Shown piece by piece: positions 17,712-38,937 of a DNA stretch of 64,000 nt. The stretch is from positions 253 to 64,252 of the forward strand of contig JADFWU010000013.1 in the NCBI GenBank assembly GCA_015234045.1. The letters run 5' to 3'. Every line of letters starts with the position of its first letter. Positions within the stretch are counted from its first letter, which is position 1. Position numbers and translations under genes: made by a program. A model generated the notes under the pieces. The model searched no databases and was not told the DNA's origin. It saw nothing but the letters and a program-made list of their open reading frames with translations. The stretch is from Magnetococcales bacterium (GTDB lineage: Bacteria > Pseudomonadota > Magnetococcia > Magnetococcales > JADFWU01).

Positions 17712-17805
17712 CTCACCCCTCCGTGTGTCTCTGTCTGCGCCAAAGTATTTCACAGCCGTTTAAGAATAGCACAGAATGATCTTCAATTCTCCAACAGCCG
17801 TGCTA

Positions 17806-24402: not shown

Positions 24403-27078
24403 TCAGGTTATTCTGCCACAGCAGTGCTTGAATTTTCTACCGCTACCACAGGTACACGGCGCATTCCGGCCCACTTTCTTTTCGCTTCGCTTGAACGGTG
24501 TTCCACTGGGCTCTTCATCATCGCCCTTGGGGTTATTCATGGTCATACCGCGTTCACGTGCTTGCGCCCGCTCTGCTTCCGCCGCTTCGACCTGCTCCTG
24601 CTGCTGAACCTCAACACGAGACAGAAATTCCACCGTATCGACTTTAATACGGTCCAACAATCCGGCAAACAGGCTGAAAGCCTCTTGTTTATACTCGTTA
24701 AGCGGATCTTTCTGGGCATAGCCGCGTAGATGAATACCCTCACGGAGATGATCCATGTTCAGAAGATGTTCTTTCCACAGAAAATCCAACATCTGCAACA
24801 TGATGCTCTTTTCAAGATAGCGCATCAACGGCGGTGTCAAACGCTCTTCACGGGATTTCAGATAGGCATCAATAGCGGCCAAAGAACGCTCTTTCACCAC
24901 CAGAGCCGTCACACCCTCTTCCTCTTTCCATTCATCAGCGGGAAGAGAAATAGCGAACTGTTTCATAATGGAGTCAACGAATTCCTTGGTCTGCCACTCT
25001 TCAGGATAAGCCTCTTCAGGAATATATTGCTCCAGAATGTCGGTGAACAACTCATTACGACACTCGGCCAGATATTCAGAGATATCTTCACTCTCCATCA
25101 ACTGGCGGCGCTGCTCATAAATGGCCATGCGCTGATCGTTCATCACATCATCGAACTTCAGAATATTCTTACGAATATCGAAGTTGCGGCCTTCGACCTT
25201 TTTCTGTGCTGATTCAATGGCTTTATTGATCCAAGGATGGACAATGGCCTCACCCTCTTCCAAGCCTAATTTCTGCAACATGCCATCCATGCGATCAGAT
25301 CCGAAGATCCGCATCAGATCATCTTGCAAAGAGAGGAAGAAACGACTGGAACCCGGATCACCCTGACGACCAGCACGACCACGTAACTGATTGTCAATGC
25401 GTCGGGATTCATGCCGCTCTGTGCCGATGATGTGCAATCCGCCAGCGGCAAGAACGGCTCTGCGCTCGGCGTTTGTCTCAGCTCGGATAGCCGCGATACG
25501 TTGTTGTTTTTCTGCCTCATCCAGACCTTCAGGCACTTCCGCTTTGATACGCATCTCGACATTACCGCCAAGCTGAATATCCGTACCACGACCCGCCATA
25601 TTGGTGGCGATGGTTACCGCGTCTTTACGACCCGCTTGTGAGACAATTTCCGCTTCCATTTCGTGGAATTTAGCATTGAGCACTTTATGCGGTATTTTTA
25701 ATTTTTTCAGAGCTTTGGCCAGCTCTTCAGACTTTTCAATGGAGACGGTACCAACCAGCGTTGGTTGACCGCGTTTGTAGCAATCCTGCACATCGGTCAG
25801 GATGGCGTTCACCTTCTCGGCATGGGTGCGGTACACCTCGTCATCATTATCCACACGCACCAGATCCTGGTTGGATGGGATGATGATCACTTCCAGATCA
25901 TAGATGGATTCAAATTCCGTTGCCTCGGTATCCGCCGTGCCGGTCATGCCAGACAGAGTGTCATACATGCGGAACAGATTCTGGAATGTGATGGATGCCA
26001 GGGTTTGGGATTCGTTCTGAATCACCACCTGTTCTTTGGCTTCCAACGCTTGGTGCAGACCATCGGAGTAGCGCCGACCCGGCATCATACGTCCGGTGAA
26101 CTCATCAATAATGACCACTTCGCCCTCTTTGACGATGTAATCCTTATCATGTTCAAACAGCGCATGCGCTTTCAGGGCCTGGTTGAGATGATGGACTTTC
26201 TCAACATTGCGGACATCGTACAGATCGCCATCTTCGAGCAATCCGCGTTCACGCAACAGTTTTTCGCCATGCTCATTACCCTCTTCGGTAAGCACCACAG
26301 TACGGGCTTTTTCATCCACAGTGTAGTGCACATCCCGCTCTAACAACGGAATGATGGCATTGATTGTATAATATTTATCGGTATTGTCTTCAGTAGGACC
26401 GGAGATAATCAACGGCGTTCTGGCTTCATCAATCAAAATGGAGTCCACCTCATCGACGATGGCGTAGTGCAACGGCCTTTGCACCATCTCTTCCAAGGTA
26501 AACTTCATGTTGTCGCGCAGGAAATCGAAACCAAATTCGTTATTGGTGCCGTACGTGATATCCGCCTGATAGGCTGCCTGGCGCTGCACATCATCCTGAC
26601 CATGCACGATCACACCAACCGTCAAACCGAGAAATTGATAGATCTGCCCCATCCATTCGGAGTCACGTTTGGCCAGATAGTCATTGACGGTCACCAAATG
26701 GGCACCCTTGCCCTCCAGGGCATTGAGATAAAGCGGCAACGTTGCCACCAGGGTTTTACCCTCACCGGTGCCCATCTCCGTAATCTTACCGTGATGCAAC
26801 ACCATACCTCCGACAAGCTGGACATCAAAATGTCGCATACCGGTCACCCGGCGACTGGCTTCCCGCACCGTGGCAAACGCCTCGGGCAGCAGATCGTCCA
26901 GGGTTTCGCCATCGGCCAGACGCTGACGGAAAAGCACCGTCTGACCGCGCAAGGCGGCATCGTCCAGTGTCTTCAAGCCCTCTTCCAGATCATTGATCTT
27001 CTGGACGATGGGATTGAGGCGTTTGAGGTATCGTGTATTACGGGTTCCGAAAAATTTCCGGGCCAGTGCTGAAAACAT
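24403..27078 (-). CDS. secA: Preprotein translocase ATPase SecA
   Basis: Canonical N-terminus [14 protein letters not shown]..., DEAD-like motor motifs ([22 protein letters not shown]), and the C-terminal zinc motif [14 protein letters not shown]. The true ATG is at 27078 (GAAGGAAT Shine-Dalgarno); the 63 upstream codons in the track ORF look spurious. Confidence 0.95.
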
Positions 27079-27311
27079 GTCGCTTTGATTCCTTCGGAGC
27101 AGGCCTGAACGGACATCCCAGCCTGATATTCCATGCGGGACAGAGCCTATTCCATCCTTAATTTCACAAAATAAAAAACCAGAAATCTGAAACAAATCGA
27201 GTGCACACCTGAGGTGGGTACGCACCGATGGCGAAGCAAGCCTACCTTTTGTCGCCCAAGCAATCAAAGGCTAACCGTACTTTAAGTCACTTTTTCACCA
27301 AAAAAAGCCCC

Positions 27312-30300
27312 TCAACCGGGCATTTCAAACGGCGGCTCCTCTTTATTCCAAAACAGAGGCAAATCTTTGGGATCACCACAGCCATAGCTTTTGCCTTCTA
27401 TGAAGGGCTTGTAGCGGTCCAGCATTTTCTGGGGTTTGGGGACATCTTTGAAGGTGTCCCGTTTTTCCTGAGGTAGCGTGCAGAGTGCGGTGACCAATTG
27501 ACGAAGAGGCTCTCTCAAATCAGAGCGGCAGCCTGCCAGGAGATAACCATCATTTATAATATCCAAACGCTCTTCGTGATTGGATACTCTATTAACTATC
27601 GACTGAAAATCAGTGGCCTCAGTTTGACCTGAAGAGTTGGATATCTTAATTAACCAATCAATAAACTGCACAGCAACATCTTTGGTTTTTCTTCTTAGCC
27701 ATGTTTCAGACAACTCAACTATTTCATCAAATTGTTTTTCAAGAGCTAATGTCAATATAGTTTGATTAACAAACTCAGAAACCCCTTTCCCTTGCTGCAT
27801 GATTAAAAGAGACTTCTCAAAATGCTCTCTTGCCAAATCTGTTTCATTGAGATGTTGATATAATGAGCCTAAATTTCTATGTATATAAGCCCTACCTGCT
27901 TCATCCTCAGAAACAGTTAACCCCTTCTTAAAAACAGACTTGGCTATGCTGAAATAGCCATTACGATAATAAGATAATAATCCGAGACCATTCCATGCAT
28001 GCGCAAACTTTGGATCCAGATCTATCGCTTTTCGATACGATGACTCCGAGTCTTCATAACGATCCATATAATTTTGATACAAATTGCCCAACTCTTGCCA
28101 TGGATGCGCTAATTTTGGATCCAGTTCTATCGCTTTTCGGTATGATGACTCCGAGTCTTCATAACGCTCCATATGATTTTGATACAAATTACCCAATCCA
28201 TGCCATGGAGGCGCATACTTTGGATCCAGTTCTATCGCTTTTCGGTACGATGACTCCGATTCTTCATAACGCTCCATATGATATTGATACAAATTGCCCA
28301 ATTCATTCCATGAAATCGCAACCTTTGGCTCCAGTTCTATCGCTTTTCGATACGATGACTCCGAGTCTTCATAACGCCCCATGTTATATTGATACAAATT
28401 GCCTAATTCATACCATGAACCTGCAAACTTTGAATCCAGATCTATCGCTTTTCGATACGATGACTCTGAGTCTTCATAACGCCCCATGTTATATTGATAC
28501 AAATTGCCCAATCCATACCATGGATCTGCAAACTTTGAATCCCGTTCTATTGCTTTATTATAATACAACTCAGCGTTTTTATAATTCTCCATACAATTAT
28601 GATATAAATCTCCCAAAGCGGCACATACCCGAGCATCTTCTGGATCAATATCAGCAGCTTTTTTATAACATCTCTCAGCTTCAGGACATTCACCCTGTTC
28701 ACCAAAAGAATCCCCAACTCGTCCCCAAATACTTAAAACATCTTCTTCCACCGATTCAACACCTTGATAAATCAACTCTCTCAGTTCAGTATTCTTTCCA
28801 GCTTCCTGCCAAAGCTCATACCAATATTGCCCCCACTGCTCCCAAGCTGGGAACGGATGATTGCCTTTTTCGAAACCTTTTAACAGAGCAGGAACTATTG
28901 AATTATCTTCATTGAGAACAATGTGTTCTACCCACTCTTTTTGATGCTTAAAATAGTGGGAAATCAAATTAGGAATAAATTCACCATCCAGCATAGAAAG
29001 CTTTTGTCGTTCCTCATTAAACACCCCAACCAACTCATTGATTTGAGCAGCACTCAACGTGTCAAAATCGTCCAACAATTGCTTCTTATTTTCCCAAGAC
29101 ATGGACGTAAAGCCGGATAACCAGTCCAAAAATTCATCATGGCTGACCTTAACGCCCTCCGGCATTGGTTTAGAGCCAATGAGTTCTTCTCTGACAGAAT
29201 CAATTGTGCGCCCTTCTTCTGGCATCAGGTCCAAAGGCCAATACCAGTGAGGCAAACGCAACAGAGGAATAAAATCCTCGCTCCGATGTTTTTTTGGCAA
29301 TGAATCATCGAGAAGAAAGTGTTCTCTTTGCTGATTATCTGATTTTTTACTTTTCTGACTATCTGGTTTTCTATCCGCAGAGATACCGGTAGTGCGGGAG
29401 ATTTTTTCTTGGATTTCCCGCTCCTGTTTTTCCAGAAGCTGCCCATCAATGTCTTCGGCTATATTGATTACAGATTGTACATAGGGGTGCTCACGATTTT
29501 TCAAAGCCAGAGGTAGATCTGAAACAGCGAGATGTGGCGTATAGGGCAGCGTATATATTACAGGAACGACCTCATCCTGTTCACCTTCAGAAACATGCAG
29601 GCGTTCATCTTTCAACAACTGTTTACCCTGATTCAATGCCTGCATGGCAAAAGGATCATCATGGATATGGGCTGGAATCGGTGAGAACACCACTTTCAGG
29701 TCTTTTGCATAACACCCCAAAGGCACGCGCTCTTTTCGAAGTGCTTTAAGGGTTAAACTAAGACCTGTTAAATTCTGCTCATTAAGTCCAGATATCAAAA
29801 CGATTTCATCAGCTAAATAGCCCAGCGTCATATTCAACAGTTCTGGAAATCCTGTACGGCAATCAATCAGAACATAGTCGAATTTTTTCTTACAATCAGG
29901 GAGGACAAACTGGGAAAAATCTTCTCTCAATTTGAATGAAAAGCCCCTTAACGCCTTGTCAAAAGGATTTTTCGACGCGCCGTTCGAACTGGGAATAGTT
30001 TGAATTTCACCATCAATGATAGTTGGCGACTGAAAACGTACCTTACCTGCGCCCATGGCCATAATTCGACCATTCCGCCCCCAAACCATCCCCTTTGGAG
30101 GAAACATTTCCCGAAACAGTCTACCGGCTGGATAGTAGCCAAAATGATCGGGATTCTCTTTATGTTTTTCGTAGAAAATTGTCAGCAGATCACTAAATCC
30201 TCGACCTTCAAGAGAAGGATCACTCCAGGGTGAATTTTTCAGCATGGGAGAATAGGTCAGCCCAGGAGCCGCCAGATCCATATCCACCAAGCCAATCACT

Positions 30301-30392
30301 TTACCCAAAGAAGCCCAGTAGGTAGCCAGATTCATCATCAAAGAGGTTCTGCCAACACCACCTTTAAATGAGAAGAACGCTATAATTTTCAT
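27312..30392 (-). CDS. ParA/MinD-like 'KGGVGR' variant NTPase fused to a 35-aa TPR-like repeat array (1026 aa); cassette gene A
   Basis: N-terminus MKIIAFFSFKGGVGRTS is a deviant Walker A with the P-loop Lys replaced by Arg. Switch motif VDMDLAAPGL; Walker B FDYVLIDCRTG. It has at least 7 tandem 35-aa TPR-like units (W.xLGNLYQ...RYEDSESSYRKAI(E/D)LDPK). The C-terminal tail DRYKPF..GCGDPKD...EMPG is shared with the 32416-35829 product. Confidence 0.85.
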   Translation of the reverse strand: MKIIAFFSFKGGVGRTSLMMNLATYWASLGKVIGLVDMDLAAPGLTYSPMLKNSPWSDPSLEGRGFSDLLTIFYEKHKENPDHFGYYPAGRLFREMFPPKGMVWGRNGRIMAMGAGKVRFQSPTIIDGEIQTIPSSNGASKNPFDKALRGFSFKLREDFSQFVLPDCKKKFDYVLIDCRTGFPELLNMTLGYLADEIVLISGLNEQNLTGLSLTLKALRKERVPLGCYAKDLKVVFSPIPAHIHDDPFAMQALNQGKQLLKDERLHVSEGEQDEVVPVIYTLPYTPHLAVSDLPLALKNREHPYVQSVINIAEDIDGQLLEKQEREIQEKISRTTGISADRKPDSQKSKKSDNQQREHFLLDDSLPKKHRSEDFIPLLRLPHWYWPLDLMPEEGRTIDSVREELIGSKPMPEGVKVSHDEFLDWLSGFTSMSWENKKQLLDDFDTLSAAQINELVGVFNEERQKLSMLDGEFIPNLISHYFKHQKEWVEHIVLNEDNSIVPALLKGFEKGNHPFPAWEQWGQYWYELWQEAGKNTELRELIYQGVESVEEDVLSIWGRVGDSFGEQGECPEAERCYKKAADIDPEDARVCAALGDLYHNCMENYKNAELYYNKAIERDSKFADPWYGLGNLYQYNMGRYEDSESSYRKAIDLDSKFAGSWYELGNLYQYNMGRYEDSESSYRKAIELEPKVAISWNELGNLYQYHMERYEESESSYRKAIELDPKYAPPWHGLGNLYQNHMERYEDSESSYRKAIELDPKLAHPWQELGNLYQNYMDRYEDSESSYRKAIDLDPKFAHAWNGLGLLSYYRNGYFSIAKSVFKKGLTVSEDEAGRAYIHRNLGSLYQHLNETDLAREHFEKSLLIMQQGKGVSEFVNQTILTLALEKQFDEIVELSETWLRRKTKDVAVQFIDWLIKISNSSGQTEATDFQSIVNRVSNHEERLDIINDGYLLAGCRSDLREPLRQLVTALCTLPQEKRDTFKDVPKPQKMLDRYKPFIEGKSYGCGDPKDLPLFWNKEEPPFEMPG
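27990..28620 (-). repeat. Six tandem 105-bp DNA repeats (coding 35-aa TPR-like units) inside cassette gene A
   Basis: An anchor motif recurs at 28011, 28116, 28221, 28326, 28431 and 28536, a strict 105-bp period. The units at 28326 and 28431 differ by about 1 nt over ~67 nt. Confidence 0.9.
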
Positions 30393-31378
30393 GCCACATA
30401 CTCTTCACTACTAAAAGACTCTCCTGGCATTGTATTAATAGCTTCAATTACACATTCATCTAAACCTCCATCAACCAAATCGAATGTAACGCTCTTTGAT
30501 TCTGAAAGTGGTATTTCAGAATCTTCTAATTCACCCTCTCTCTCTGACGGTTCAAGAATTTTATCTTCATCTTTCTTTGCCAGCACAGAAACTCCACTAC
30601 TACGAATCATTTCAACCTGATCCGACCAAATTTTATTCACCCGCCTTGCCGCAGCCTCATATTTTTCATAGGAACAGTTCTCAAAAAATGGCTGCACTTT
30701 CCCTTCATAAATAATCGGTAAAACTTCCAACGCTTTCGGCATCAGGCGAGTAACCGCTGCACGACGAACCATAAAACTCCAAAGCAGATCCTCATGCTGA
30801 CTATCAACACATAGCTCGCCTATATCAGTCCACACCTCTATTTGTTTCAATGACTCAATAGACAGTTCACCTTGATTATCAATCATTCCCTGCAAAATCT
30901 TCTGTGGAATCTTTATATCAAGACGATCTAACAATTTATTTCCAGCAGCTCTTCTCATCTGCTTGATGTCATCATGCGTGGCAAACATCAATTTCTTTGT
31001 CCCACACATCCACTTTCCTGACAGCGGCGGCAAGAATTGTGATCGAGATTTTGCTTCGGTGTTTTCAACAAACCTGGGAAAGGAACCGGCCAACGCTTCA
31101 TACTCTTTTAAAAATTCAGAATCCATATAAAAAGCACGGATATTTCTTCCTACGAACTTTTTTTCAACAACCGGACAGAGCAACCCTGTTTCTGAATACT
31201 CTTCAAAATCAGATCGGCTGATAATTTTTGTAATATCTTCCAGAATATCATCCAACAACCCCAATTTATCCGGCTCTTGTGTGCTATGTACAATCACAGC
31301 CTCCTCACCACAGCCATCTGCGAGACTTCTGTTGACAGCTTCAACAATTACTTTTTGATTGTCTGTCGTCTCAGTCAT
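30389..31378 (-). CDS. Hypothetical acidic protein (329 aa); cassette gene B
   Basis: The ATG at 31378 overlaps the stop of gene C (ATGA), and its own stop overlaps the ATG of gene A (ATGA). No recognisable motif. Acidic C-terminal tail. Low GC, like A and C. Confidence 0.7.
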   Translation of the reverse strand: MTETTDNQKVIVEAVNRSLADGCGEEAVIVHSTQEPDKLGLLDDILEDITKIISRSDFEEYSETGLLCPVVEKKFVGRNIRAFYMDSEFLKEYEALAGSFPRFVENTEAKSRSQFLPPLSGKWMCGTKKLMFATHDDIKQMRRAAGNKLLDRLDIKIPQKILQGMIDNQGELSIESLKQIEVWTDIGELCVDSQHEDLLWSFMVRRAAVTRLMPKALEVLPIIYEGKVQPFFENCSYEKYEAAARRVNKIWSDQVEMIRSSGVSVLAKKDEDKILEPSEREGELEDSEIPLSESKSVTFDLVDGGLDECVIEAINTMPGESFSSEEYVA

Positions 31379-32262
31379 CTCATACCGCCCTGCTTTTTCT
31401 CTATCCAATTTTTCATAAAATCACGCACGCCTTGTTCCGGGTCAGCGCCATAATCCAGAAAACCATCTGGCAATTCGGGAGGTTCCGACACCCCTTCCTC
31501 ACCTCTGACATAGGCTTCTTTCCATAGAGCCAACGCGCCAAGAACCTTTCGATAAGTTTCCTTTGGCATTGCCCAGCCTAACAATGCATCAGTAACAGAA
31601 ATAGGTTTTGGTCCGGTTAATCGCACTTCCCAAGTCCAAGAGGCCCAGTCATCAGACAACTTGTCCACATAGCGAACGGGAAGATCACAATGATCCCAAC
31701 AAGCATCTTTCAATTCTGGGCAACTTGCAGGTTTGTCACCATCCATATAATTTTGCCACTCAGAACCATAGAAGGACCACAAATATTCATGGAAGCCAGC
31801 ACGCCACTGATCCAATTCCATCCGTGTTTCCTGTAAAAATTTTACAGCCTTAAACCGCTCTTTATCCTCAGATTCAACAGGAAACGGCTTGCAATTTCCT
31901 GTGAACACACCACCGCTGTCACACGGCGTTGCACAACCATCCTTTTCGCGCTCTATCTCCGGATGATAACACAGCATAATTAGCTCACCATAAACCTCAT
32001 CTCGACCAATTGCTCTTTTTTCAGCCTTATTTCGGTCAGGCCGCCCAGCTTTTCCAGCATACATGTAAACAGCAGGCATCCAACCGCATTTTTCCTGCAC
32101 GTCCCAACAACGACTGCCTTTTTTGGACACATGATAGAAAAGAGAGTCCTGGTTTTTATCTTTAAAGGCATCAAAAATCCAATCAACAGGTGTCGTATGC
32201 ACCAACGGCATCCAAGATGCGGGTGATTTACCTTCCCGAAACACTTGTTCAATCATGGCCAT
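31375..32262 (-). CDS. Hypothetical Cys/Trp-rich protein (295 aa); cassette gene C
   Basis: ATG at 32262 has GGAG 6 nt upstream. The track start 32325 adds 21 implausible residues. Many Cys and Trp residues (CWDVQEKCGW, CATPCDSGG..GNC, SCPELKDACWDHC). No family recognised. Confidence 0.7.
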   Translation of the reverse strand: MAMIEQVFREGKSPASWMPLVHTTPVDWIFDAFKDKNQDSLFYHVSKKGSRCWDVQEKCGWMPAVYMYAGKAGRPDRNKAEKRAIGRDEVYGELIMLCYHPEIEREKDGCATPCDSGGVFTGNCKPFPVESEDKERFKAVKFLQETRMELDQWRAGFHEYLWSFYGSEWQNYMDGDKPASCPELKDACWDHCDLPVRYVDKLSDDWASWTWEVRLTGPKPISVTDALLGWAMPKETYRKVLGALALWKEAYVRGEEGVSEPPELPDGFLDYGADPEQGVRDFMKNWIEKKQGGMR

Positions 32263-32373
32263 ATACAACTCCAGTAAGTACGCATATCCACAACTCAAAA
32301 AACATAATCGCTTACAGTTGTTCAACGCAATCCTGAAGATACTATATGATATTTATTCTTTGTTAAAGATTTG

Positions 32374-32400
32374 ACCGGGCTTCAAGGAGGGAAGCCCGGT
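32374..32400. terminator. GC-rich hairpin between cassette genes D and C
   Basis: ACCGGGCTTC-aaggagg-GAAGCCCGGT: 10-bp perfect stem with a 7-nt loop, 16 nt past the stop of gene D. A T-tract (TTTTGTT) follows on the plus strand and an A-tract precedes on the minus strand, so it could act bidirectionally. On the gene strand the trailing sequence is only CAAAUCUUU. Confidence 0.45.
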
Positions 32401-32415
32401 TTTGTTGAGAAGACC

Positions 32416-35400
32416 TCAGCCAGGCATATCCAACACCGGTTCGTCCTCTTTGAAGAACCGGTTCATATCATTCGGATCGCCACAACCAATGCTTAATCGT
32501 GCAACAAATGGTTTGTAGCGGTCCAAAATCTCTTTTGGAAGAGCTACATCTTTAAAGGTTTCCAGCTTTTCAGCAGGCAATCCATAGAGCTTATTGGCAA
32601 AGCGGCGTAATGGTAGGCGCAGATCTGCCCGGAAGCCGGATATCCGATAACAAGCCGTGAGTATTTCGAACCGTGTGTAGTGGCTGGAGAGCGTATCTAT
32701 GACCGATTGCGTGTTCATGGCATCCAGTGGTGTTTTTTGGAGCCAGGCGGCAAAATGTAGATTAGCGTCTTTTGGGAATTTTATTAGCCAATCATTCAGA
32801 ATATCCGCTGATTGATCGCCCTTTTTGTTCAGGCAGGCTTCCAAAATGATCTGAATATGGCAATGATGGCGGTATAGATCGGGCCTGAGACCGGATAAGG
32901 ATTGATCCAAGTGCGCGATGGCCATACCGTTTTCATCGGCATGCTGGTAAAGAAAACCAAGATCCCGTTGCAGGGTTGCATTGATATTTTCATCATCAGC
33001 CAGTGACAAACCTTTTTCAATCAATTTCTTGGCGGCGCTGTAATGGCCTCGGTGCATCCAATAAAGCAAGCCCATACCATGCCAGGGATAGGCATATCTT
33101 GGATCAAGCTCAATGGACTTACGATAAGCCGCTTCCGCTTCATCAAGACGACCCAGATGATCTTGCAACAGATTGCCCAACCCATTCCACGCAGAGGCAT
33201 AACTCGGCTTTAAAGTCAGTGCATGTTGATAGGCTGATTCCGACTCGGCATAGCGTGCGAAGTGATTTTTCAGCAGGTTGCCCAGCTTGTTCCAGGGATC
33301 AACCTCTGAGGCATCAAGCTCAATCGATTTCCGATAAGCGGCTTCCGCCTCTTCCGGTCTACCCAATTTATATTGATACAGATTGCCCAGACCATGCCAA
33401 GGCGCGGCCAGAGAGCCATCCGCTTCGATAATCTTGATGTACGCCTCTTCCGAAGCGTCTGGCCGGTGCAGCTTGTACTGATACAAATTGCCCAACGTAT
33501 ACCAGGGATGGGCATAATTGGGATCAAGCTCAATAGCCTTTTTGAATACAGCCTCTGAATCTTCTGGACGGTCCAGTTTATTTTGATACAACTTGCCCAG
33601 ACCATGCCACGCATCGGCGTATTTTGGATCAAGTTCCAACGCCTGTTGATAGGCCGCTTCCGAAGCCTCAGGCCTGTCCAGTACATGTTGATAAAGATTG
33701 GCCAACCCTTGGTGATAATTGGGCAGACGCGGTTCCAACTCAATGGCGGTCTGATAAGCGGCTTCAGACTCCTCTGCGCGGTCGAGTTTATAGTGCAACA
33801 GCTTGGCTAGTCCGTACCACGGATACGCCAGCGAACCATCCAAGGCAATGGCCTTACGGTACGCCTTTTCAGACTCTTCATAGCGATTGAGATGGTTTTT
33901 GAGCAGATTACCCAGACCATGCCAAGTATCGGCGTTGTTGGGATCACTCTCCAACGCTTTCCGATAGGCCGACTCAGCCTGTTCTGGACGATTGAGCGTA
34001 TATTGATACAGATTACCAAGCCCTTGCCAGGCATTGGCCAGCGACTCATCCAGCGCCAGCGCCTGACGGTACACTTTTTCCGCATCGGAGGGACGGTCAA
34101 GGCGTTCATGCAACAGCCGACCAAAGTTTGACCACGCTTCAGGATCATTCCGATCCTGGTCAATACTCTTGATAAATGCACCCGCCGCTTGATCATACTC
34201 TCCAGAAGCGGCAAGACGGATGCCTAAACGATTCCAAGCTGAAGCATCTTCGGTATCCATTTTAAACGCCTCCTGCATAGCCTGTTCATAACGTGGGGGG
34301 TCATTGCGAAACAGTTCTGCCAACGCAACCCAAAAAATCGGTAGATCTTCCCAGCTTGGGAATGATCCTTTGCGTTGAGCCGCCTGATCCATAAGCGGCT
34401 TGATGATCTTACCGGGCTGATTCAGAATCACGCGATCTGCCCAGGCAATCTGATGGTGCAGATAGAACACCATGCGTGAGGTCGGGTCTGAGCCATCCGG
34501 CACAGCGTGTCTTTGCCGTTCCCTATCCAATATATCAATCAGCGCGTTGAGTTGCGACTGTGACAGATCCGGCATAAGAGCTAAAATACGTTTTTTCTCA
34601 CCCACTGAAAAAGCCACCGAACCGGCCAGCAGGTCCAAAATTCCATCTTTATCCGCAATCACACCCTGCGGCAACGTGCCAATCAATCCCGCGCGAACCT
34701 CTGCGATACGATCCTTTTGACCTGTTGCCAAGAGCGGCCAGTACCAACGCGGCAGAATCAATTGAAATTCCGTAGATTCAGCCCTACTATCAGCGCTATC
34801 CAGATATTTCTTGGACGATTTCACCAGCCCTGCCACAGCCGCATCGTCACCAGTGAAGGACACCCCAACACACCGACCCATCGCATACTGGGTCTTTTGG
34901 ATTGTGTGTTGCACGGTTGCCCCATCAATCTGTTCAGCAATCGCCATCACGGTCCGCACATAGGGCAGATCCTGACGATTCAACAGCAACGGCAGATCCG
35001 ATCCGGCAAGCCGAGCATCATAGGGCATAACGAAACACGCTGGCGTGGTTTCGACTTGAATATCTTCAGGCGGCACCAAAGCATACGCAGAAGACAAACG
35101 CACCCCTTTTTCCAACGCCTGCATGGCCAGCGGACAGATATTGATCTGACTCTGCAACGGCGACAACGCCACCACCACGTCACGAGCATACGCACCAAAC
35201 GGAATCGCCTCTTCACGCAACGTTTGGAGCGTTTCAGCAAAAACGGATAAATTTTGACTGGTCAAACCGGACATCAACACGATCTGATCCGCCATATTAC
35301 CCAGCATCAGAGCCAGTAGATCAGGGTATCCCGTCCGAAAATCCACCAACACATAATCAAACGCCCGCCCACTGTCTGGCAAAACGTAATTTTTTACTCT

Positions 35401-35829
35401 CTTTCTAAAATCACGATAAAAAGCCTGCACTTGTTCACTATCAAGCTCTTCAGCAAGTGGTAAACAGATCTCACCACTACGCACGGAACCCGCACCCAAG
35501 GCCCACACCTGACCAGTGCGCCCCCACTTCTGTCCGTTGGGTAGCGTCACTTCTCTGAACAGGGCGGAGAGCGGCAACGCTTCAGCCTCTTCAGACGTAT
35601 CAATCGCATTAAAATAGGCGATTAAATCACTTACGCCACACCCTTCAAATGCCGGATCAGGCCACGCAAGATCGTTGATAAGCGGCAAACCGGTCAAACC
35701 CGGTGCTGCCAGATCCATATCAACCAAACCAACCACGTTGCCAAGTGAGGCCCAATAGGCGGCCAACTCAGTGATCAGAGCAGTGCGACCAACACCGGCC
35801 TGACACGAAAAGAATGCAATGATTTTCAT
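32416..35829 (-). CDS. Paralogous ParA/MinD-like NTPase with degenerate P-loop (QAGVGRT) fused to a 35-aa TPR-like repeat array (~1137 aa); cassette gene D
   Basis: MKIIAFFSCQAGVGRTAL..., VDMDLAAPGL and FDYVLVDFRTG are collinear with gene A. It has about 11 35-aa TPR-like units and the same C-terminal tail (DRYKPF..GCGDPND...DMPG). Start taken at ATG 35829 by homology with A; the track uses a TTG at 35856. Confidence 0.85.
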   Translation of the reverse strand: MKIIAFFSCQAGVGRTALITELAAYWASLGNVVGLVDMDLAAPGLTGLPLINDLAWPDPAFEGCGVSDLIAYFNAIDTSEEAEALPLSALFREVTLPNGQKWGRTGQVWALGAGSVRSGEICLPLAEELDSEQVQAFYRDFRKRVKNYVLPDSGRAFDYVLVDFRTGYPDLLALMLGNMADQIVLMSGLTSQNLSVFAETLQTLREEAIPFGAYARDVVVALSPLQSQINICPLAMQALEKGVRLSSAYALVPPEDIQVETTPACFVMPYDARLAGSDLPLLLNRQDLPYVRTVMAIAEQIDGATVQHTIQKTQYAMGRCVGVSFTGDDAAVAGLVKSSKKYLDSADSRAESTEFQLILPRWYWPLLATGQKDRIAEVRAGLIGTLPQGVIADKDGILDLLAGSVAFSVGEKKRILALMPDLSQSQLNALIDILDRERQRHAVPDGSDPTSRMVFYLHHQIAWADRVILNQPGKIIKPLMDQAAQRKGSFPSWEDLPIFWVALAELFRNDPPRYEQAMQEAFKMDTEDASAWNRLGIRLAASGEYDQAAGAFIKSIDQDRNDPEAWSNFGRLLHERLDRPSDAEKVYRQALALDESLANAWQGLGNLYQYTLNRPEQAESAYRKALESDPNNADTWHGLGNLLKNHLNRYEESEKAYRKAIALDGSLAYPWYGLAKLLHYKLDRAEESEAAYQTAIELEPRLPNYHQGLANLYQHVLDRPEASEAAYQQALELDPKYADAWHGLGKLYQNKLDRPEDSEAVFKKAIELDPNYAHPWYTLGNLYQYKLHRPDASEEAYIKIIEADGSLAAPWHGLGNLYQYKLGRPEEAEAAYRKSIELDASEVDPWNKLGNLLKNHFARYAESESAYQHALTLKPSYASAWNGLGNLLQDHLGRLDEAEAAYRKSIELDPRYAYPWHGMGLLYWMHRGHYSAAKKLIEKGLSLADDENINATLQRDLGFLYQHADENGMAIAHLDQSLSGLRPDLYRHHCHIQIILEACLNKKGDQSADILNDWLIKFPKDANLHFAAWLQKTPLDAMNTQSVIDTLSSHYTRFEILTACYRISGFRADLRLPLRRFANKLYGLPAEKLETFKDVALPKEILDRYKPFVARLSIGCGDPNDMNRFFKEDEPVLDMPG

Positions 35830-36221
35830 GATGCTAATAGTGTCAGTTTTACTCAATCTTTTCCAGGTATTCTAGGGCTGTACCAAACAAAAAGTGCTTT
35901 CATGACACATTTGTTCCGAAGCCCGCAAAACCTAATTCCAGCATAGCACAAACCCGGTTGGCTGATTCCCTGTTTCACGCTACATATTGCCGCTGACCAA
36001 TCACCTGCGCTATTATCATGCACTGGCGCGTGGGGATGCGCTCTCCCGATCAACAAAAAGAACCTTGAATCTTCCCGACGGGAACACCTGAAAAGGGTGG
36101 GCCAAGCGCTTTTTTTTGCCCTCTTTTTCTCGTTCAGAACCTTTCCCCGCACCCTTTGTTAGTCTGTTCAATTGAAAACAGATCGTTATCCTCGCCTGAC
36201 CATCTAAATAAAAAAACAGTC

Positions 36222-37610
36222 ATGGAAATTTGGGACAAAGTACTGGATGCATTAAAAGAGCAGGTTTCCGAGCAAGTATTCAGTGCCTGGATATCTCCAC
36301 TACGCCCGGCTGGTCCCATTCGGGGCAGTGAGTTGGAAATTCTGGTGGGCAATGACTTTTCCCTTGATTGGGTGAAAAGTCGCTATGACTCGCTACTGAC
36401 CGCTTCATTCTCTGCCGAAGCGGGTCGCGCCATCACCATTGTCTACACAATAGACACCAACGCCCCAATCAAGCCCGCCCAAGAAGATAATGCAAAATCC
36501 GCAGAGCAAAAAGACACCCCCGAAACACCAAAACAAGCCGCGAAACCAAAACAAGCCGATCCTTCTGATGAATCCACCACCCTGCCCCGTGAAAGCGGGT
36601 TAGACCCGCGCTACACCTTTGACTCATTCGTGGTCGGTGGCTGTAATCAGTTTGTCCATGCCGCTTCCGAACGCGTAGCGGAAGCCCCGGCAACCGCTTA
36701 CAACCCGCTGTTTATCTACGGCGGTGTCGGTCTGGGTAAAACGCATTTGATGCATGCTATCGGACATAAAGTGCTTGAAGATCGCCCCGATGCGCGGGTG
36801 CTCTATATCTCCTCGGAAAAATTCATGACCGAGTTGATCAACTCATTGCGCTTTAAACGGGTATTCAATTTTAAAGAGGAATTCCGGTCAGTCGATCTAC
36901 TATTGATTGATGATATTCAGTTCATCGCTGGAAAGAAGGCCACTCAGGAAGAGTTTTTTCACACCTTCAACGCCCTGTTCGAAGCCAATAAGCAGATCAT
37001 CATGACCTCAGATCGGTTTCCCAATGAGATCGACAATCTGGAAGAGCGCCTGCGCTCTCGCTTCGGCTGGGGCTTGGTGGCGGATATTCAACCGCCTGAG
37101 CTGGAAACCCGTGTGGCAATTCTGAAGAAAAAAGCCAGCATGGAAGGCTTGGAACTGCAAGATGATGTGGCTTTTTTCCTCGCCAACGCCATTCAAACCA
37201 ACGTCCGGGAACTGGAAGGCGCTTTGGTGCGTGTTTCAGCCTTCTCGTCACTCACCAGACAGCCGGTGACCATGGAGTTGGTCAAAGAGTCGTTGCGGGA
37301 TATCGTCAAAGGCCAGGAGCGCCAGATTACCATTGAAGGCATTCAGAAAACCGTCTGCGCCTTCTATAAAATCCGCCCACAGGATATGCGTTCAAACAAA
37401 CGCTCACGCCTGTTTGCCCATCCGCGACAGATTGCCATGTACCTCTGCAAACAACTGACCCGCCACTCCTACCCGGAAGTAGGTCATCAGTTTGGTGGAC
37501 GCGACCACACCACGGTTCTTTATGCCGTCCGCAGCATTGATAAAAAAATGAAAAGCGATGGCAATTTGGCCGAAGAGGTTGAGACACTCAAGAACATGAT
37601 TACCAAGTAA
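36222..37610 (+). CDS. dnaA: Chromosomal replication initiator protein DnaA
   Basis: N-terminus MEIWDKVLDALKEQV..., Walker A GGVGLGKTHL, Walker B LLLIDDIQF, and the DNA-binding signature FGGRDHTTVLYA. The true ATG is at 36222; the track start 36156 adds 22 residues. Confidence 0.95.
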   Translation: MEIWDKVLDALKEQVSEQVFSAWISPLRPAGPIRGSELEILVGNDFSLDWVKSRYDSLLTASFSAEAGRAITIVYTIDTNAPIKPAQEDNAKSAEQKDTPETPKQAAKPKQADPSDESTTLPRESGLDPRYTFDSFVVGGCNQFVHAASERVAEAPATAYNPLFIYGGVGLGKTHLMHAIGHKVLEDRPDARVLYISSEKFMTELINSLRFKRVFNFKEEFRSVDLLLIDDIQFIAGKKATQEEFFHTFNALFEANKQIIMTSDRFPNEIDNLEERLRSRFGWGLVADIQPPELETRVAILKKKASMEGLELQDDVAFFLANAIQTNVRELEGALVRVSAFSSLTRQPVTMELVKESLRDIVKGQERQITIEGIQKTVCAFYKIRPQDMRSNKRSRLFAHPRQIAMYLCKQLTRHSYPEVGHQFGGRDHTTVLYAVRSIDKKMKSDGNLAEEVETLKNMITK

Positions 37611-38100
37611 AGCCATAGAAAGGACTTAAATTGACGGGAAGCAACCGCCGTTTACGCTCCTTAGCATACTTAGCTGAACGCGTTGTTTGTTCAGCAAGAT
37701 AAGCGACAAGTTGAGCGTCCCAGGAAGGCGAACCAAAGTTTTTAAGGAGACTAAGAGTCTCTGGTTCAATTTGATACACAGCTTTGGGACTATTAACTGG
37801 GCGATCTGGCTCATCTGGATTATATAAGGCAATACCAGCATCTACAAACTGATGCATTGTTTGCCGACGAAAAGTCTCACGAGTGTTGGGTGCATACGCC
37901 TTTCCATAGTGATCTCGACTGAAATCCATCATGGGCGTAATGCCTTTCAGTGGACTTTCGGCTTGTATCCAGCTTTTCTCAGGAGAAAGATCCAACAGTG
38001 CAAGAAGACAAAGTGCTGAACGCTCATTCTGCTGAGCACGAGGCATTTCAAGCGCATCAAGAATAACGATAGCTTCTGTAATGTTGCGATGAAGACTCAT
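37600..38100 (-). pseudogene. Truncated BsuBI/PstI-like type II restriction endonuclease (N-terminal HTH domain only)
   Basis: 166 aa. The string ..PRAQQNERSALCLLALL...YAPNTRETFRRQTMHQFVDAGI..NPD.PDRPVNSPKAVYQI matches my recollection of the BsuBI/PstI endonuclease N-terminal domain. Full-length enzymes are ~320 aa. The ORF runs into the 3' end of dnaA and lacks a catalytic half. Family assignment is from memory only. Confidence 0.5.
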
Positions 38101-38937
38101 GCAATGCTTTCAATTTTTTGATCAATATTTTGTTGAGAAAAAGGACTGTCAACTTTTTTAACCCACTGCCCAATCTTGATAAGAGTATCACGATTTGGAT
38201 ACATCATGCGACGAAGGTCTGTCACATTGACTTGAGTATGACCACTGAAGCAACGAAAGTGCCGATCAACTGCTGATGAATTTCCTAAACGACCGATAAT
38301 AAGGACCATTACAAAAACTCCGCGGGATAATGGCCACGAGTTGCCCTAGTGGTTCCAATAATGCAAGCGATAGAGATAGAAATGCAGAGTATAAATTTAC
38401 TGTTTCAATACCCACTGATCTCAGAATTTTTCGATAGTGCGAAGTATTCTTAATCTTATGATAGGGCGGATTCAGGATTGCGTGAGTAAAACGCTGGCCA
38501 CTTCCATCTCGCAGATTTAAAACAGCATCATCAACAAAATCAGTCGTGATAATTCGCGATCTCAGAGAGCTCTGTCCCCTCAACAAATGCAGGGTTTGCC
38601 TTAAAGAGTCGATGAGGTTCTCATCAATTTCATAAGCGGTAAGATCAATACGGCTGTTTTCTCCGTGACGACGGAGAAAAGCGTGTAATAGCGCTCCTCT
38701 TCCAGCCCCAGCATCAAGAAGACGGATTGTTTCCCCTCTTCTAGGAAGAAACAACAAACTCATAAAATCAGCAATGGTTGTTGGCGTTACAAATTGGCAG
38801 AGAGAAGATTTTCTTTCAGAACATGCAGGCGGCACAAGTGCAAAAGGCTCCTCAAAATCCCGAAGAGAATCAAGCCGATGCGTTTGTAAAAAACTGCTTT
38901 TTTCAAGACTCATTGAAAGACCGCCGCTACTAAGCAA
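38097..38937 (-). pseudogene. Frameshifted/truncated gamma-class N6-adenine DNA methyltransferase (PstI/Eco57I-like)
   Basis: SAM motif LLDAGAGRGALL precedes the catalytic ILNPPYHKI. The reading frame breaks near 38266-38309: a 223-aa ORF then a 70-aa ORF in another frame. The combined length (~290 aa) is well short of typical ~500-aa enzymes. GC is ~33% in a hand-counted 60-nt sample. Confidence 0.6.

Follow-up and report, generated by a model that had tools for sequence, protein, structure and literature searches.

The sensor-switch proteins of prokaryotic immunity have so far been dominated by STAND and ABC/SMC-like ATPases. Here, we analyzed a locus built on an NTPase of the SIMIBI ParA/MinD type in a 64,000-nucleotide stretch of a Magnetococcales bacterium genome (contig JADFWU010000013.1 of assembly GCA_015234045.1, positions 253 to 64,252 of the forward strand); this whole stretch is referred to below as the window. 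Within it, secA (24403..27267) and dnaA (36156..37610, plus strand) enclose four minus-strand open reading frames (ORFs), D, C, B, and A in the direction of transcription, as an initial annotation of the bare sequence had already reported. A and D are giants that begin with a ParA/MinD-type NTPase and continue into a tetratricopeptide repeat (TPR) array, and the smaller C (locus tag HQL54_05880) and B (HQL54_05875) lie between them. We found that C, B, and A form a conserved three-gene cassette, in which C has a predicted ADP-ribosyltransferase-like fold and which we regard as a candidate conflict system.

STAND/Avs immune sensors resemble A in having an N-terminal NTPase, a helical middle part, and, at the C-terminus, a TPR array whose repeats are nearly identical and vary locally, and they resemble the cassette in being mobile, in occurring in several copies, and in having effectors that are swapped or carried on separate genes. 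However, the NTPase of A is of the dimerizing SIMIBI ParA/MinD type and not of the oligomerizing, AAA+-like NACHT/NB-ARC type (neither A nor D matched NACHT, NB-ARC, or AAA_16 in Pfam, NCBIfam, or PADLOC), and the putative effector of the cassette is on a separate gene accompanied by an extra partner gene. DarTG compares with the cassette in that DarT1 and DarT are the best structural matches of C and in that a small gene directly precedes an overlapping partner gene. In contrast to DarTG, C has no Pfam DarT match, B shows no macro or NADAR domain in Pfam, NCBIfam, PADLOC, or PDB profiles, the relatives of C are mostly acidic, and a third gene for a giant NTPase-TPR protein is always present in the cassette. 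NifH, a SIMIBI protein of the MinD/ParA/NifH class, is regulated by arginine ADP-ribosylation; like the DraT-DraG-NifH circuit, the cassette encodes a protein of (predicted) ADP-ribosyltransferase fold together with a P-loop protein of this class having conserved arginines, but it shows no sequence relation to DraT or DraG, A is no nitrogenase component, and the cassette is mobile with swapped partners. Canonical ParA/MinD proteins share with A the signature lysine, the glycine-rich loop, the Switch-I DxD, and the Walker-B aspartate, whereas A has an arginine for the P-loop lysine, is 1026 residues long instead of about 260 to 300, resembles them over about 45 residues, and has no identified ParB-, MinE-, or cargo-type partner.

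The NTPase domain itself has been named before. The N-terminal domain of A matches both NCBIfam NF047398 and the PADLOC candidate component PDC-M28B, sources that go no further than a domain name or a candidate system. In NTP-dependent conflict systems, Kaur et al. 2020 (PMC7159879) described "MinD/ParA-like" domains that they predicted to be inactive and that take the effector position of vWA-MoxR/VMAP systems; here, by contrast, the domain is the N-terminal module of a TPR giant encoded after an ADP-ribosyltransferase-like gene and a partner gene, and no vWA, MoxR, or VMAP gene was adjacent to the cassette in the window or at seven inspected loci. In the literature we found no description of the three-gene cassette, of the family of C, or of its ADP-ribosyltransferase fold. 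The supposition that the system was undescribed thus stood for the cassette but not wholly for the NTPase domain. The logic of an NTPase-repeat sensor plus an effector would be that of known conflict systems; what appears new is the description of the cassette.

Gene linkage, partner swapping, and foreign composition

A search with the N-terminal 546 residues of A recovered about 50 full-length relatives (700 to 950 residues, 30–45% identity), most of them in Magnetococcales metagenome-assembled genomes (MAGs) and the others in Nitrospirae, Ca. Kentrum, and Deltaproteobacteria. At seven of the seven distinct contigs inspected, the relative of A was directly preceded on the same strand by two genes of 235 to 400 residues, often with overlapping junctions and without a Pfam match for either gene; about 20 further genome loci likewise had a KGGVGR-NTPase gene after two small co-oriented genes. 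We designated the three slots X, Y, and Z, which are held in the window by C, B, and A, respectively, and numbered loci (L) and proteins (P). BLASTP determined that C is homologous to the X proteins of L001, L002, and L004 (30–32% identity, E 1e-28 to 1e-33) and B to the Y proteins of the same loci (24–32% identity, E 1e-9 to 1e-19). In a scan of one genome per species, at least 482 loci encoded a KGGVGR-type relative, and local profile searches for X and Y partners covered 80 of these. Triads with the X and Y types of the window (X1-Y1-Z) occurred in L009, L010, L011, L017, L018, and L020, the Y1 profile matched in 10 loci, and in MAGs of Verrucomicrobia, Planctomycetes, and Acidobacteria, X1 also lay two genes ahead of KGGVGR NTPases that are more distant.

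Neither C nor B is an orphan. A word-indexed search of 5.8 billion proteins had returned self-matches only, a false negative of the word prefilter that was overturned by BLASTP on the neighbors of A's relatives and by a full HMMER scan of 1.84 billion representative proteins; the homologs share 30–43% identity, and the scan recovered 65 clusters related to C, all of about 250 to 300 residues. Orphan calls from a word-indexed protein search need checking. Reverse searches started from X-family members agreed with the linkage. P0160 (L089 519-7052) lies with X1, Y1, a stand-alone 338-residue KGGVGR NTPase, and two genes of about 650 residues without a Pfam match, which may be the counterparts of A's middle and sensor regions, and the gene of P0130 directly follows that of a TPR protein. 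P0175 (L092 6001-11416) is followed by a 341-residue gene and a 1183-residue KaiC/RecA-type ATPase (GTGKS), which is not of the KGGVGR type, with a recombinase and a resolvase nearby; apparently, an X/Y-type effector pair can couple to a different NTPase class. Two other X-family contigs end before the neighbors can be read. The proposal that the small genes are dedicated partners of NTPase-TPR genes was therefore borne out by the linkage at all seven loci, by the homology of C and B to X and Y, and by the reverse searches. What had been described as a four-gene cassette on two giants, however, has to be redrawn: the canonical X-Y-Z cassette consists of C-B-A, next to which D stands as an extra, compositionally native and degenerate paralog behind a hairpin and a promoter-like site.

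Furthermore, clustering of the two upstream slots at all loci revealed that several unrelated partner pairs precede KGGVGR NTPases. Type 1 (X1+Y1) is that of the window, type 2 (X2+Y2) occurs at L006-8, L016, L019, and L022, and type 3 consists of X3+Y3. In type 4, the X protein is nitrilase-like (Pfam CN_hydrolase, E 1e-3; PADLOC CARF-nitrilase, E 2e-4); its Pfam match is weak, its matches to two PADLOC models of nitrilases fused to defense proteins are weaker still, and the Y protein has a weak MarR-like match. Comparison by hhalign detected no similarity between the type 1 and type 2 profiles of either X or Y. Types 1, 2, and 4 pair with giants of A's architecture (the same NTPase, middle domain, TPR repeats, and C-terminal tail), and more distant KGGVGR NTPases pair with further X/Y sets. 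By analogy, a swapped slot for a putative enzyme, a variable slot for a putative adaptor, and a constant NTPase-repeat protein is the pattern of modular conflict systems.

The three cassette genes also differ from their surroundings in base composition, as had been noticed from their low GC content. The GC content at third codon positions (GC3) is 0.38 in A, 0.35 in B, and 0.40 in C, compared with 0.51 in D, 0.55 in secA, and 0.56 in dnaA, and the dip in the GC profile coincides exactly with 27.3–32.4 kb. The reported ATGA start/stop overlaps at C/B and B/A follow from the ORF coordinates (4 nucleotides each), whereas D and C are separated by 153 nucleotides. In this gap, a hairpin begins 16 nucleotides past the stop codon of D; judged from its sequence it is a possible terminator or cassette boundary, and it was not called by a terminator scan because its T-tract is weak. 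Given the GC3 contrast, the hairpin, and the promoter-like site upstream of C, C-B-A has the look of a recent acquisition, a self-contained stretch of about 5.1 kb beside a resident paralog. The closest relatives of A lie in other genomes (43–46% identity), whereas the closest relative of D is A (39.7%), all others being at most 35% identical, indicating that D is of the same lineage as A, has diverged further, and has lost the signature lysine. With its native-looking composition, D looks like an older resident paralog with a degenerate nucleotide site, which may either pair with A, for example, as the degenerate half of a heterodimer, or be a relic.

The genes flanking the cassette differ at every locus inspected, and several copies occur in single MAGs (L009 and L018; L020 and L026). 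Neither flanking direct repeats nor a tRNA gene was found as an integration-site mark at the cassette. Near cassettes of other genomes we found a complete Wadjet JetABCD (L007, 12790-19657), a bAvd accessory gene of a diversity-generating retroelement (L006, 4349-4696), and an integrase with a PrimPol gene (L005, 990-7228). In the window, the decayed restriction-modification system reported beyond dnaA could be recognized: an ORF at 37600..38100 (166 residues) encodes solely the N-terminal helix-turn-helix (HTH) domain of a BsuBI/PstI endonuclease (E 6e-53), and another at 38266..38937 (223 residues) encodes an Eco57I-type methylase fragment. These remnants (37600-38937) lie in a low-GC patch (0.42-0.45); thus, dnaA has foreign-looking DNA on both sides.

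Several neighborhoods of relatives had contents of their own. Directly 3′ of the cassette of Magnetococcus sp. MYC-9 (L004, 12835-21417) lie genes for a SpoIIE phosphatase, SiaC, a guanylate cyclase-PilZ protein, an AAA_16-TPR (STAND-like) protein, and a 933-residue WD40 protein, that is, signaling or conflict-type genes. Another, common operon type consists of a gene of about 120 residues, a MqsA-antitoxin-like HTH protein of about 190 residues, and a KGGVGR NTPase of about 620 residues (PDC-M28B, E 1e-34); it occurs at L044, L047, L055, L058-L060, L070, L074, L077, L080, L081, L083, L088, and the viral contig L094, and it looks like a toxin-antitoxin-like or defense triad related to that of the window. 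At L073, L075, L078, and L079 (Anabaena/Nostoc; 4 of the 11 cyanobacterial loci), KGGVGR proteins of about 900 residues are encoded about 0.6 kb downstream of a GroEL/Cpn60 paralog of about 545 residues, and an ORF of about 145 residues overlaps the 5′ end of the KGGVGR gene; the GroEL/Cpn60-paralog arrangement was also seen once each in Paenibacillus and Chryseobacterium.

The KGGVGR NTPase and the repeats of the giants

That the outer genes are paralogs was confirmed by a full-length alignment of A and D at 39–42% identity (E = 0), which runs from the NTPase through the LP(H/R)WYWPL middle segment and the TPR array to the DRYKPF...GCGDP tail; the motifs quoted for them were correct as well, A having FKGGVGRT and D having CQAGVGRT. 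On NF047398 ("KGGVGR-motif variant AAA ATPase"; cut-off 90), residues 1-218 of A score 99.7 bits, whereas D, with 79.9 bits and QAGVGR, stays under the cut-off. PDC-M28B matches both A (E 2.9e-15) and D (E 6e-10); the model of PDC-M28 component A matched neither C nor B, and its best score among 54 members of the X family was one at E 0.011. On A, Pfam AAA_31 scores 41.3 bits (cut-off 27) confined to residues 1-40, the scores of Pfam ParA, CbiA, and VirC1 are under their cut-offs, and in a PDB profile search the solved ParA/MinD/Mrp chains resemble A from residue 1 to no further than about residue 45.

An alignment of nine family members revealed that G12, V13, G14, and the arginine replacing the P-loop lysine are invariant, as are the DxD of VDMDL (D37, D39), D177 of DYVLID, and the DxRTG segment; the Switch-I and Walker-B aspartates of the ParA/MinD class are thus present in A. 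The signature lysine occurs in eight of the nine, D alone carrying glutamine. In a census of 202 family NTPases, K-G-G-x-G-R-[TS] was found in 193 of the 195 readable motifs, Q-A-G-V-G-R-T was restricted to D, and the arginines of KGGVGR[TS] and DxRTG were nearly invariant. Neither giant has the deviant Walker A sequence KGGxGK[ST], since A keeps the signature lysine and replaces the P-loop lysine by arginine, and D lacks both. The strict conservation of KGGVGR argues that the site is functional and not decayed; nevertheless, from its motif it cannot be a canonical ParA ATPase site.

The middle domain of A has the invariant residues P381, W383, W385, P386, K436, E461, W487, and E518 in the nine-member alignment and matched nothing in Pfam or NCBIfam. 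A C-terminal RYxPFxxGxSxGxGDPxD tail was present in 12 of the 21 sequences examined (A, D, and 10 other family members), and some family members (P0060, P0063) carry TIR domains. Two further large TPR proteins are encoded in the window, at 14826-17753 (975 residues) and 53624-56557 (977 residues), neither of which matched the profile of the NTPase plus middle domain; the genome is rich in TPR giants.

The repeat counts first given, about 7 units in A and about 11 in D, hold for units in strict 35-residue register and are slightly low when flanking units are included, which brings them to 9 and 13. Nucleotides 27989-28556 form a 105-nucleotide tandem repeat (5.4 copies, 88% matches) that encodes five units of A. 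Among four near-identical units, 23 of the 35 positions are invariant, and amino acid differences occur mainly at unit positions 6, 8, 11, 20, and 22. Taking W10, L13, G14, and Y17 as TPR W4, L7, G8, and Y11, the variable sites fall mostly in helix A and at the start of helix B; in TPR-ligand complexes, these positions line the concave binding face.

Predicted fold of C and character of B

The inner genes had been described as carrying no recognizable motif. This held for library searches, as Pfam, NCBIfam, and PADLOC gave no match, but not for the family of C, whose alignment has the invariant residues D115, G117, W153, and E212, the near-invariant residues Y66, G70, G92, G109, P113, R154, Y172, W209, and R214, and the recurring motifs P[FC]D[TS]GG, WR, and WxWE[VI]R. 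None of the 54 X-family members matched Pfam, the ADP-ribosyltransferase families included, and a PDB sequence-profile search with a deep X alignment found nothing matching.

Nor is C featureless in its predicted structure. The AlphaFold model of C, made from the family alignment (predicted local distance difference test 86.3, predicted template-modeling score 0.86), has a DarT-like ADP-ribosyltransferase fold: in a Foldseek search against the PDB, matches with this fold took ranks 1-4, 7, 8, and 21, six of the top eight. The top match was E. coli DarT1 with NAD+ (8baq; E 1.5e-4, probability 1.00), and the others were Thermus DarT (7omv, probability 0.93), Thermosipho DarTG (7omu), the Salmonella ADP-ribosyltransferase SopF (7dn9, 7dn8), a Tpt1-like protein (1wfx), and one chain of the typhoid-toxin entry 7ee6 (PltC), which its length leads us to take for the ADP-ribosyltransferase subunit PltA. 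In a mapping made from secondary structure and motifs, triad-like elements follow in the order [H/R]-Y-E: strand β1, whose last residue is H, R, or T, and then strands with "Y-F-Y-A-G" and "W-E-V-R." Position 66 is tyrosine in 53 of the 54 X sequences and E212 is invariant, both on predicted strands, whereas the first triad position (residue 22) varies, with threonine in 26 sequences, histidine in 14, and arginine in 11. On the Foldseek matches and the strand order, we call C an ADP-ribosyltransferase-fold protein of a new family. By this model C is probably an enzyme, which its invariant Asp, Glu, Arg, and Tyr residues fit. Weak matches of C to viral models included baculovirus ORF32 and iridovirus 422L, which may belong to the arthropod-virus ORF28 family; Iyer et al. 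2022 reported this family to be related to DarT.

Two other readings of C were tried and dropped. A chymotrypsin-like protease had been suggested by "DSGG" and a weak coronavirus 3C-like protease profile match (E 0.7), but no histidine is conserved, the match was gone with a deeper profile, and the fold search led to ADP-ribosyltransferases; for an aspartic protease, considered because of the "DTGG" motif, there was no support at all.

Among 11 Y1 sequences, a single residue is invariant. Because almost no residues are invariant in its family, B is probably not an enzyme; a binding partner that evolves fast and has no catalytic activity, for example, an adaptor, an inhibitor, or an antitoxin, would fit this pattern. 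B and its relatives matched nothing in Pfam, NCBIfam, PADLOC, or PDB profiles, PDB profile searches with Y1 and X2 giving noise only. The acidity of B did not hold as a family trait, the isoelectric points of Y proteins spanning 5 to 9.7. The features of the locus are collected in Table 1.

Table 1. Positions in the window of the genes, domains, and signals of the locus
Feature	Position	Strand	Description
D	32416..35829	minus	1137 residues from MKIIAFFS; paralog of A, without an X/Y pair of its own
C (X slot)	31375..32262	minus	295 residues; candidate effector enzyme, predicted ADP-ribosyltransferase-like (DarT-like) fold
B (Y slot)	30389..31378	minus	329 residues; weakly conserved partner, probably non-catalytic (adaptor, inhibitor, or antitoxin)
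A (Z slot)	27312..30392	minus	1026 residues; KGGVGR-NTPase, middle domain, TPR array, C-terminal domain; candidate sensor-switch
NTPase domain of A, ParA/MinD-type	29433..30392	minus	about residues 1-320; FSFKGGVGRT, VDMDLAAPG, DYVLIDCRTG
Middle domain of A	28758..29270	minus	about residues 375-545; LPxWxWPL, FLDxLxxSxSLSxxxK, ERQ, WE; family-specific
TPR array of A	27783..28757	minus	about 9 units, 35-residue period
C-terminal domain of A	27315..27782	minus	ends R(S/P)DLR...KDVP.P...RYKPF..G.S.GCGDP.D
Hairpin 3′ of D	32374..32400	minus	perfect 10-bp stem ACCGGGCTTC / GAAGCCCGGT, 7-nucleotide loop; read from sequence
Promoter-like site TTAACA-16-TAGTAT	32339..32366	minus	upstream of C; consensus match only (such sites in the region: 19 found, 14 expected)
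Terminator-like hairpin	27200..27226	minus	3′ of A, before secA; pattern match only

Possible function and its alternatives

Indirect evidence favors a conflict or defense role over cargo positioning. We tentatively read C-B-A as a mobile three-gene conflict cassette of the defense or abortive-infection type, a reading to which we give slightly less than an even chance. It draws on the recurrent X-Y-Z order, the confident model of C with its ADP-ribosyltransferase matches, the exchange of partner pairs, the TIR domains of some family members, the pairing of X with a KaiC/RecA-type giant, the foreign composition, differing flanks, and multiple copies of the cassette, the near-identical TPR units of A that vary at few positions, and the earlier annotations by PADLOC and Kaur et al. 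2020. The overlapping stop and start codons suggest that A, B, and C are made together and act as a complex. A would be the sensor-switch, with its hypervariable TPR array binding a trigger and its KGGVGR ParA/MinD-fold domain serving as a nucleotide-dependent dimerization or conformational switch; C would be the effector, an enzyme whose ADP-ribosyltransferase fold relates it to DarT; and B, without catalytic activity, would link C to A as an adaptor or hold C back as an inhibitor. In such a scheme, A would keep B and C in a complex until a trigger bound to the TPR array shifts the KGGVGR domain to another nucleotide or dimer state; C would then be freed or activated, and NAD+-dependent modification of its target would arrest the cell or the invader, giving a protective phenotype.

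Several observations count against this reading. The fold matches of C are modest (TM-score 0.34-0.47, root-mean-square deviation about 8 Å), no sequence profile ties C to any ADP-ribosyltransferase family, for example, Pfam DarT/DUF4433 or DRAT, the first [H/R]-Y-E position is threonine in about half of the X family, and X proteins are mostly acidic, unlike the DNA-binding DarT. B showed no recognizable antitoxin or ADP-ribosyl-hydrolase domain in library searches. The change of the P-loop lysine to arginine may abolish hydrolysis, so that the "switch" is an assumption. The ratio of nonsynonymous to synonymous differences (pN/pS) among the repeats of A is 0.59, which gives no formal evidence of positive selection. 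Finally, many cassette loci lie amid housekeeping genes, outside defense islands, and 2.9 million viral contigs yielded only 4 distant relatives.

The same features can be assembled differently. Were C to ADP-ribosylate A itself, perhaps on a conserved arginine, with B assisting or reversing the modification, the three genes would form a DraT-DraG-NifH-type regulatory circuit tuning a physiological function of A. The modeled fold of C would support such a circuit, as would the membership of A in the SIMIBI class of NifH, the near-invariance of the KGGVGR[TS] and DxRTG arginines, the acidity of the X proteins, which is more in keeping with a protein than with DNA as the target, and the tight co-encoding of X, Y, and Z. 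We nevertheless consider it unlikely: the X slot is held by unrelated, including nitrilase-like, proteins in other relatives, which is hard to square with a dedicated modification writer, the cassette is mobile, multi-copy, and compositionally foreign, and Pfam and NCBIfam showed no DraT similarity in C and no DraG/ARH or macro-domain similarity in B. An equally improbable explanation, to our judgment, is a tripartite toxin-antitoxin addiction module in which C would be the toxin, B the antitoxin, and A a chaperone-like or regulatory protein, the whole being selfish and sensing no invader. A protein of about 1000 residues with a sensor-like, locally variable repeat array exceeds the needs of an antitoxin chaperone, even though the overlapping small genes, the enzyme-like X, the fast-evolving, non-enzymatic Y, the signature of horizontal transfer, and the MqsA-like antitoxin HTH protein that follows a gene of about 120 residues in related KGGVGR operons would all suit such a module. 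Known three-gene toxin-antitoxin systems include some that combine a chaperone with an ADP-ribosyltransferase toxin (Kaur et al. 2020, PMC7159879, introduction). Moreover, the boundary between toxin-antitoxin and abortive-infection systems is blurred, and this explanation therefore overlaps the conflict reading.

The idea that A, with D, patterns a surface as a ParA/MinD-like positioning or polarity system, its TPR array recruiting cargo and B and C being cargo or adaptors, draws on the retained signature lysine and Switch-I and Walker-B aspartates, on the concentration of close relatives in Magnetococcales MAGs, and on the position of the locus next to dnaA. It appears very unlikely, given that the P-loop lysine is replaced by arginine in nearly all readable motifs, that the similarity to solved ParA/MinD proteins is so short, that flanks differ everywhere with no conserved synteny with a cargo locus at the seven loci inspected, and that the cassette is foreign in composition with partner proteins swapped between relatives. 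Furthermore, full-length relatives occur also in Ca. Kentrum, Sulfuricellaceae, and Thermoanaerobaculia, and X1 accompanies more distant KGGVGR NTPases in Planctomycetes and Verrucomicrobia. A magnetosome link was considered and rejected as well: Ca. Kentrum, Sulfuricellaceae, and Thermoanaerobaculia are lineages that we do not know to be magnetotactic, and Pfam detected no magnetosome gene beside the inspected cassettes.

Returning to the conflict reading, a broader form of it is that KGGVGR ParA/MinD-fold NTPases with repeat arrays constitute an uncharacterized class of immune sensors, SIMIBI proteins with an Arg-substituted P-loop and swappable effector/adaptor pairs, of which the pair in the window would include a new DarT-like family. 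We hold this to be possible but rather doubtful. By analogy, such a class would parallel the STAND NLR-like proteins, with a dimerizing NTPase.

The cassette is compact and carries its own promoter-like site, and the family offers natural experiments in its swapped X/Y pairs, in the NTPase split off as a separate gene, and in the degenerate paralog. The near-invariant KGGVGR[TS] and DxRTG raise the question of whether a ParA fold with arginine for lysine binds or hydrolyzes nucleotide or is itself subject to modification. Should the cassette be a defense system, it would add a third NTPase class, the SIMIBI ParA/MinD type, to the sensor-switches of prokaryotic immunity, together with a new family of ADP-ribosyltransferase effectors that has no sequence-detectable relatives.

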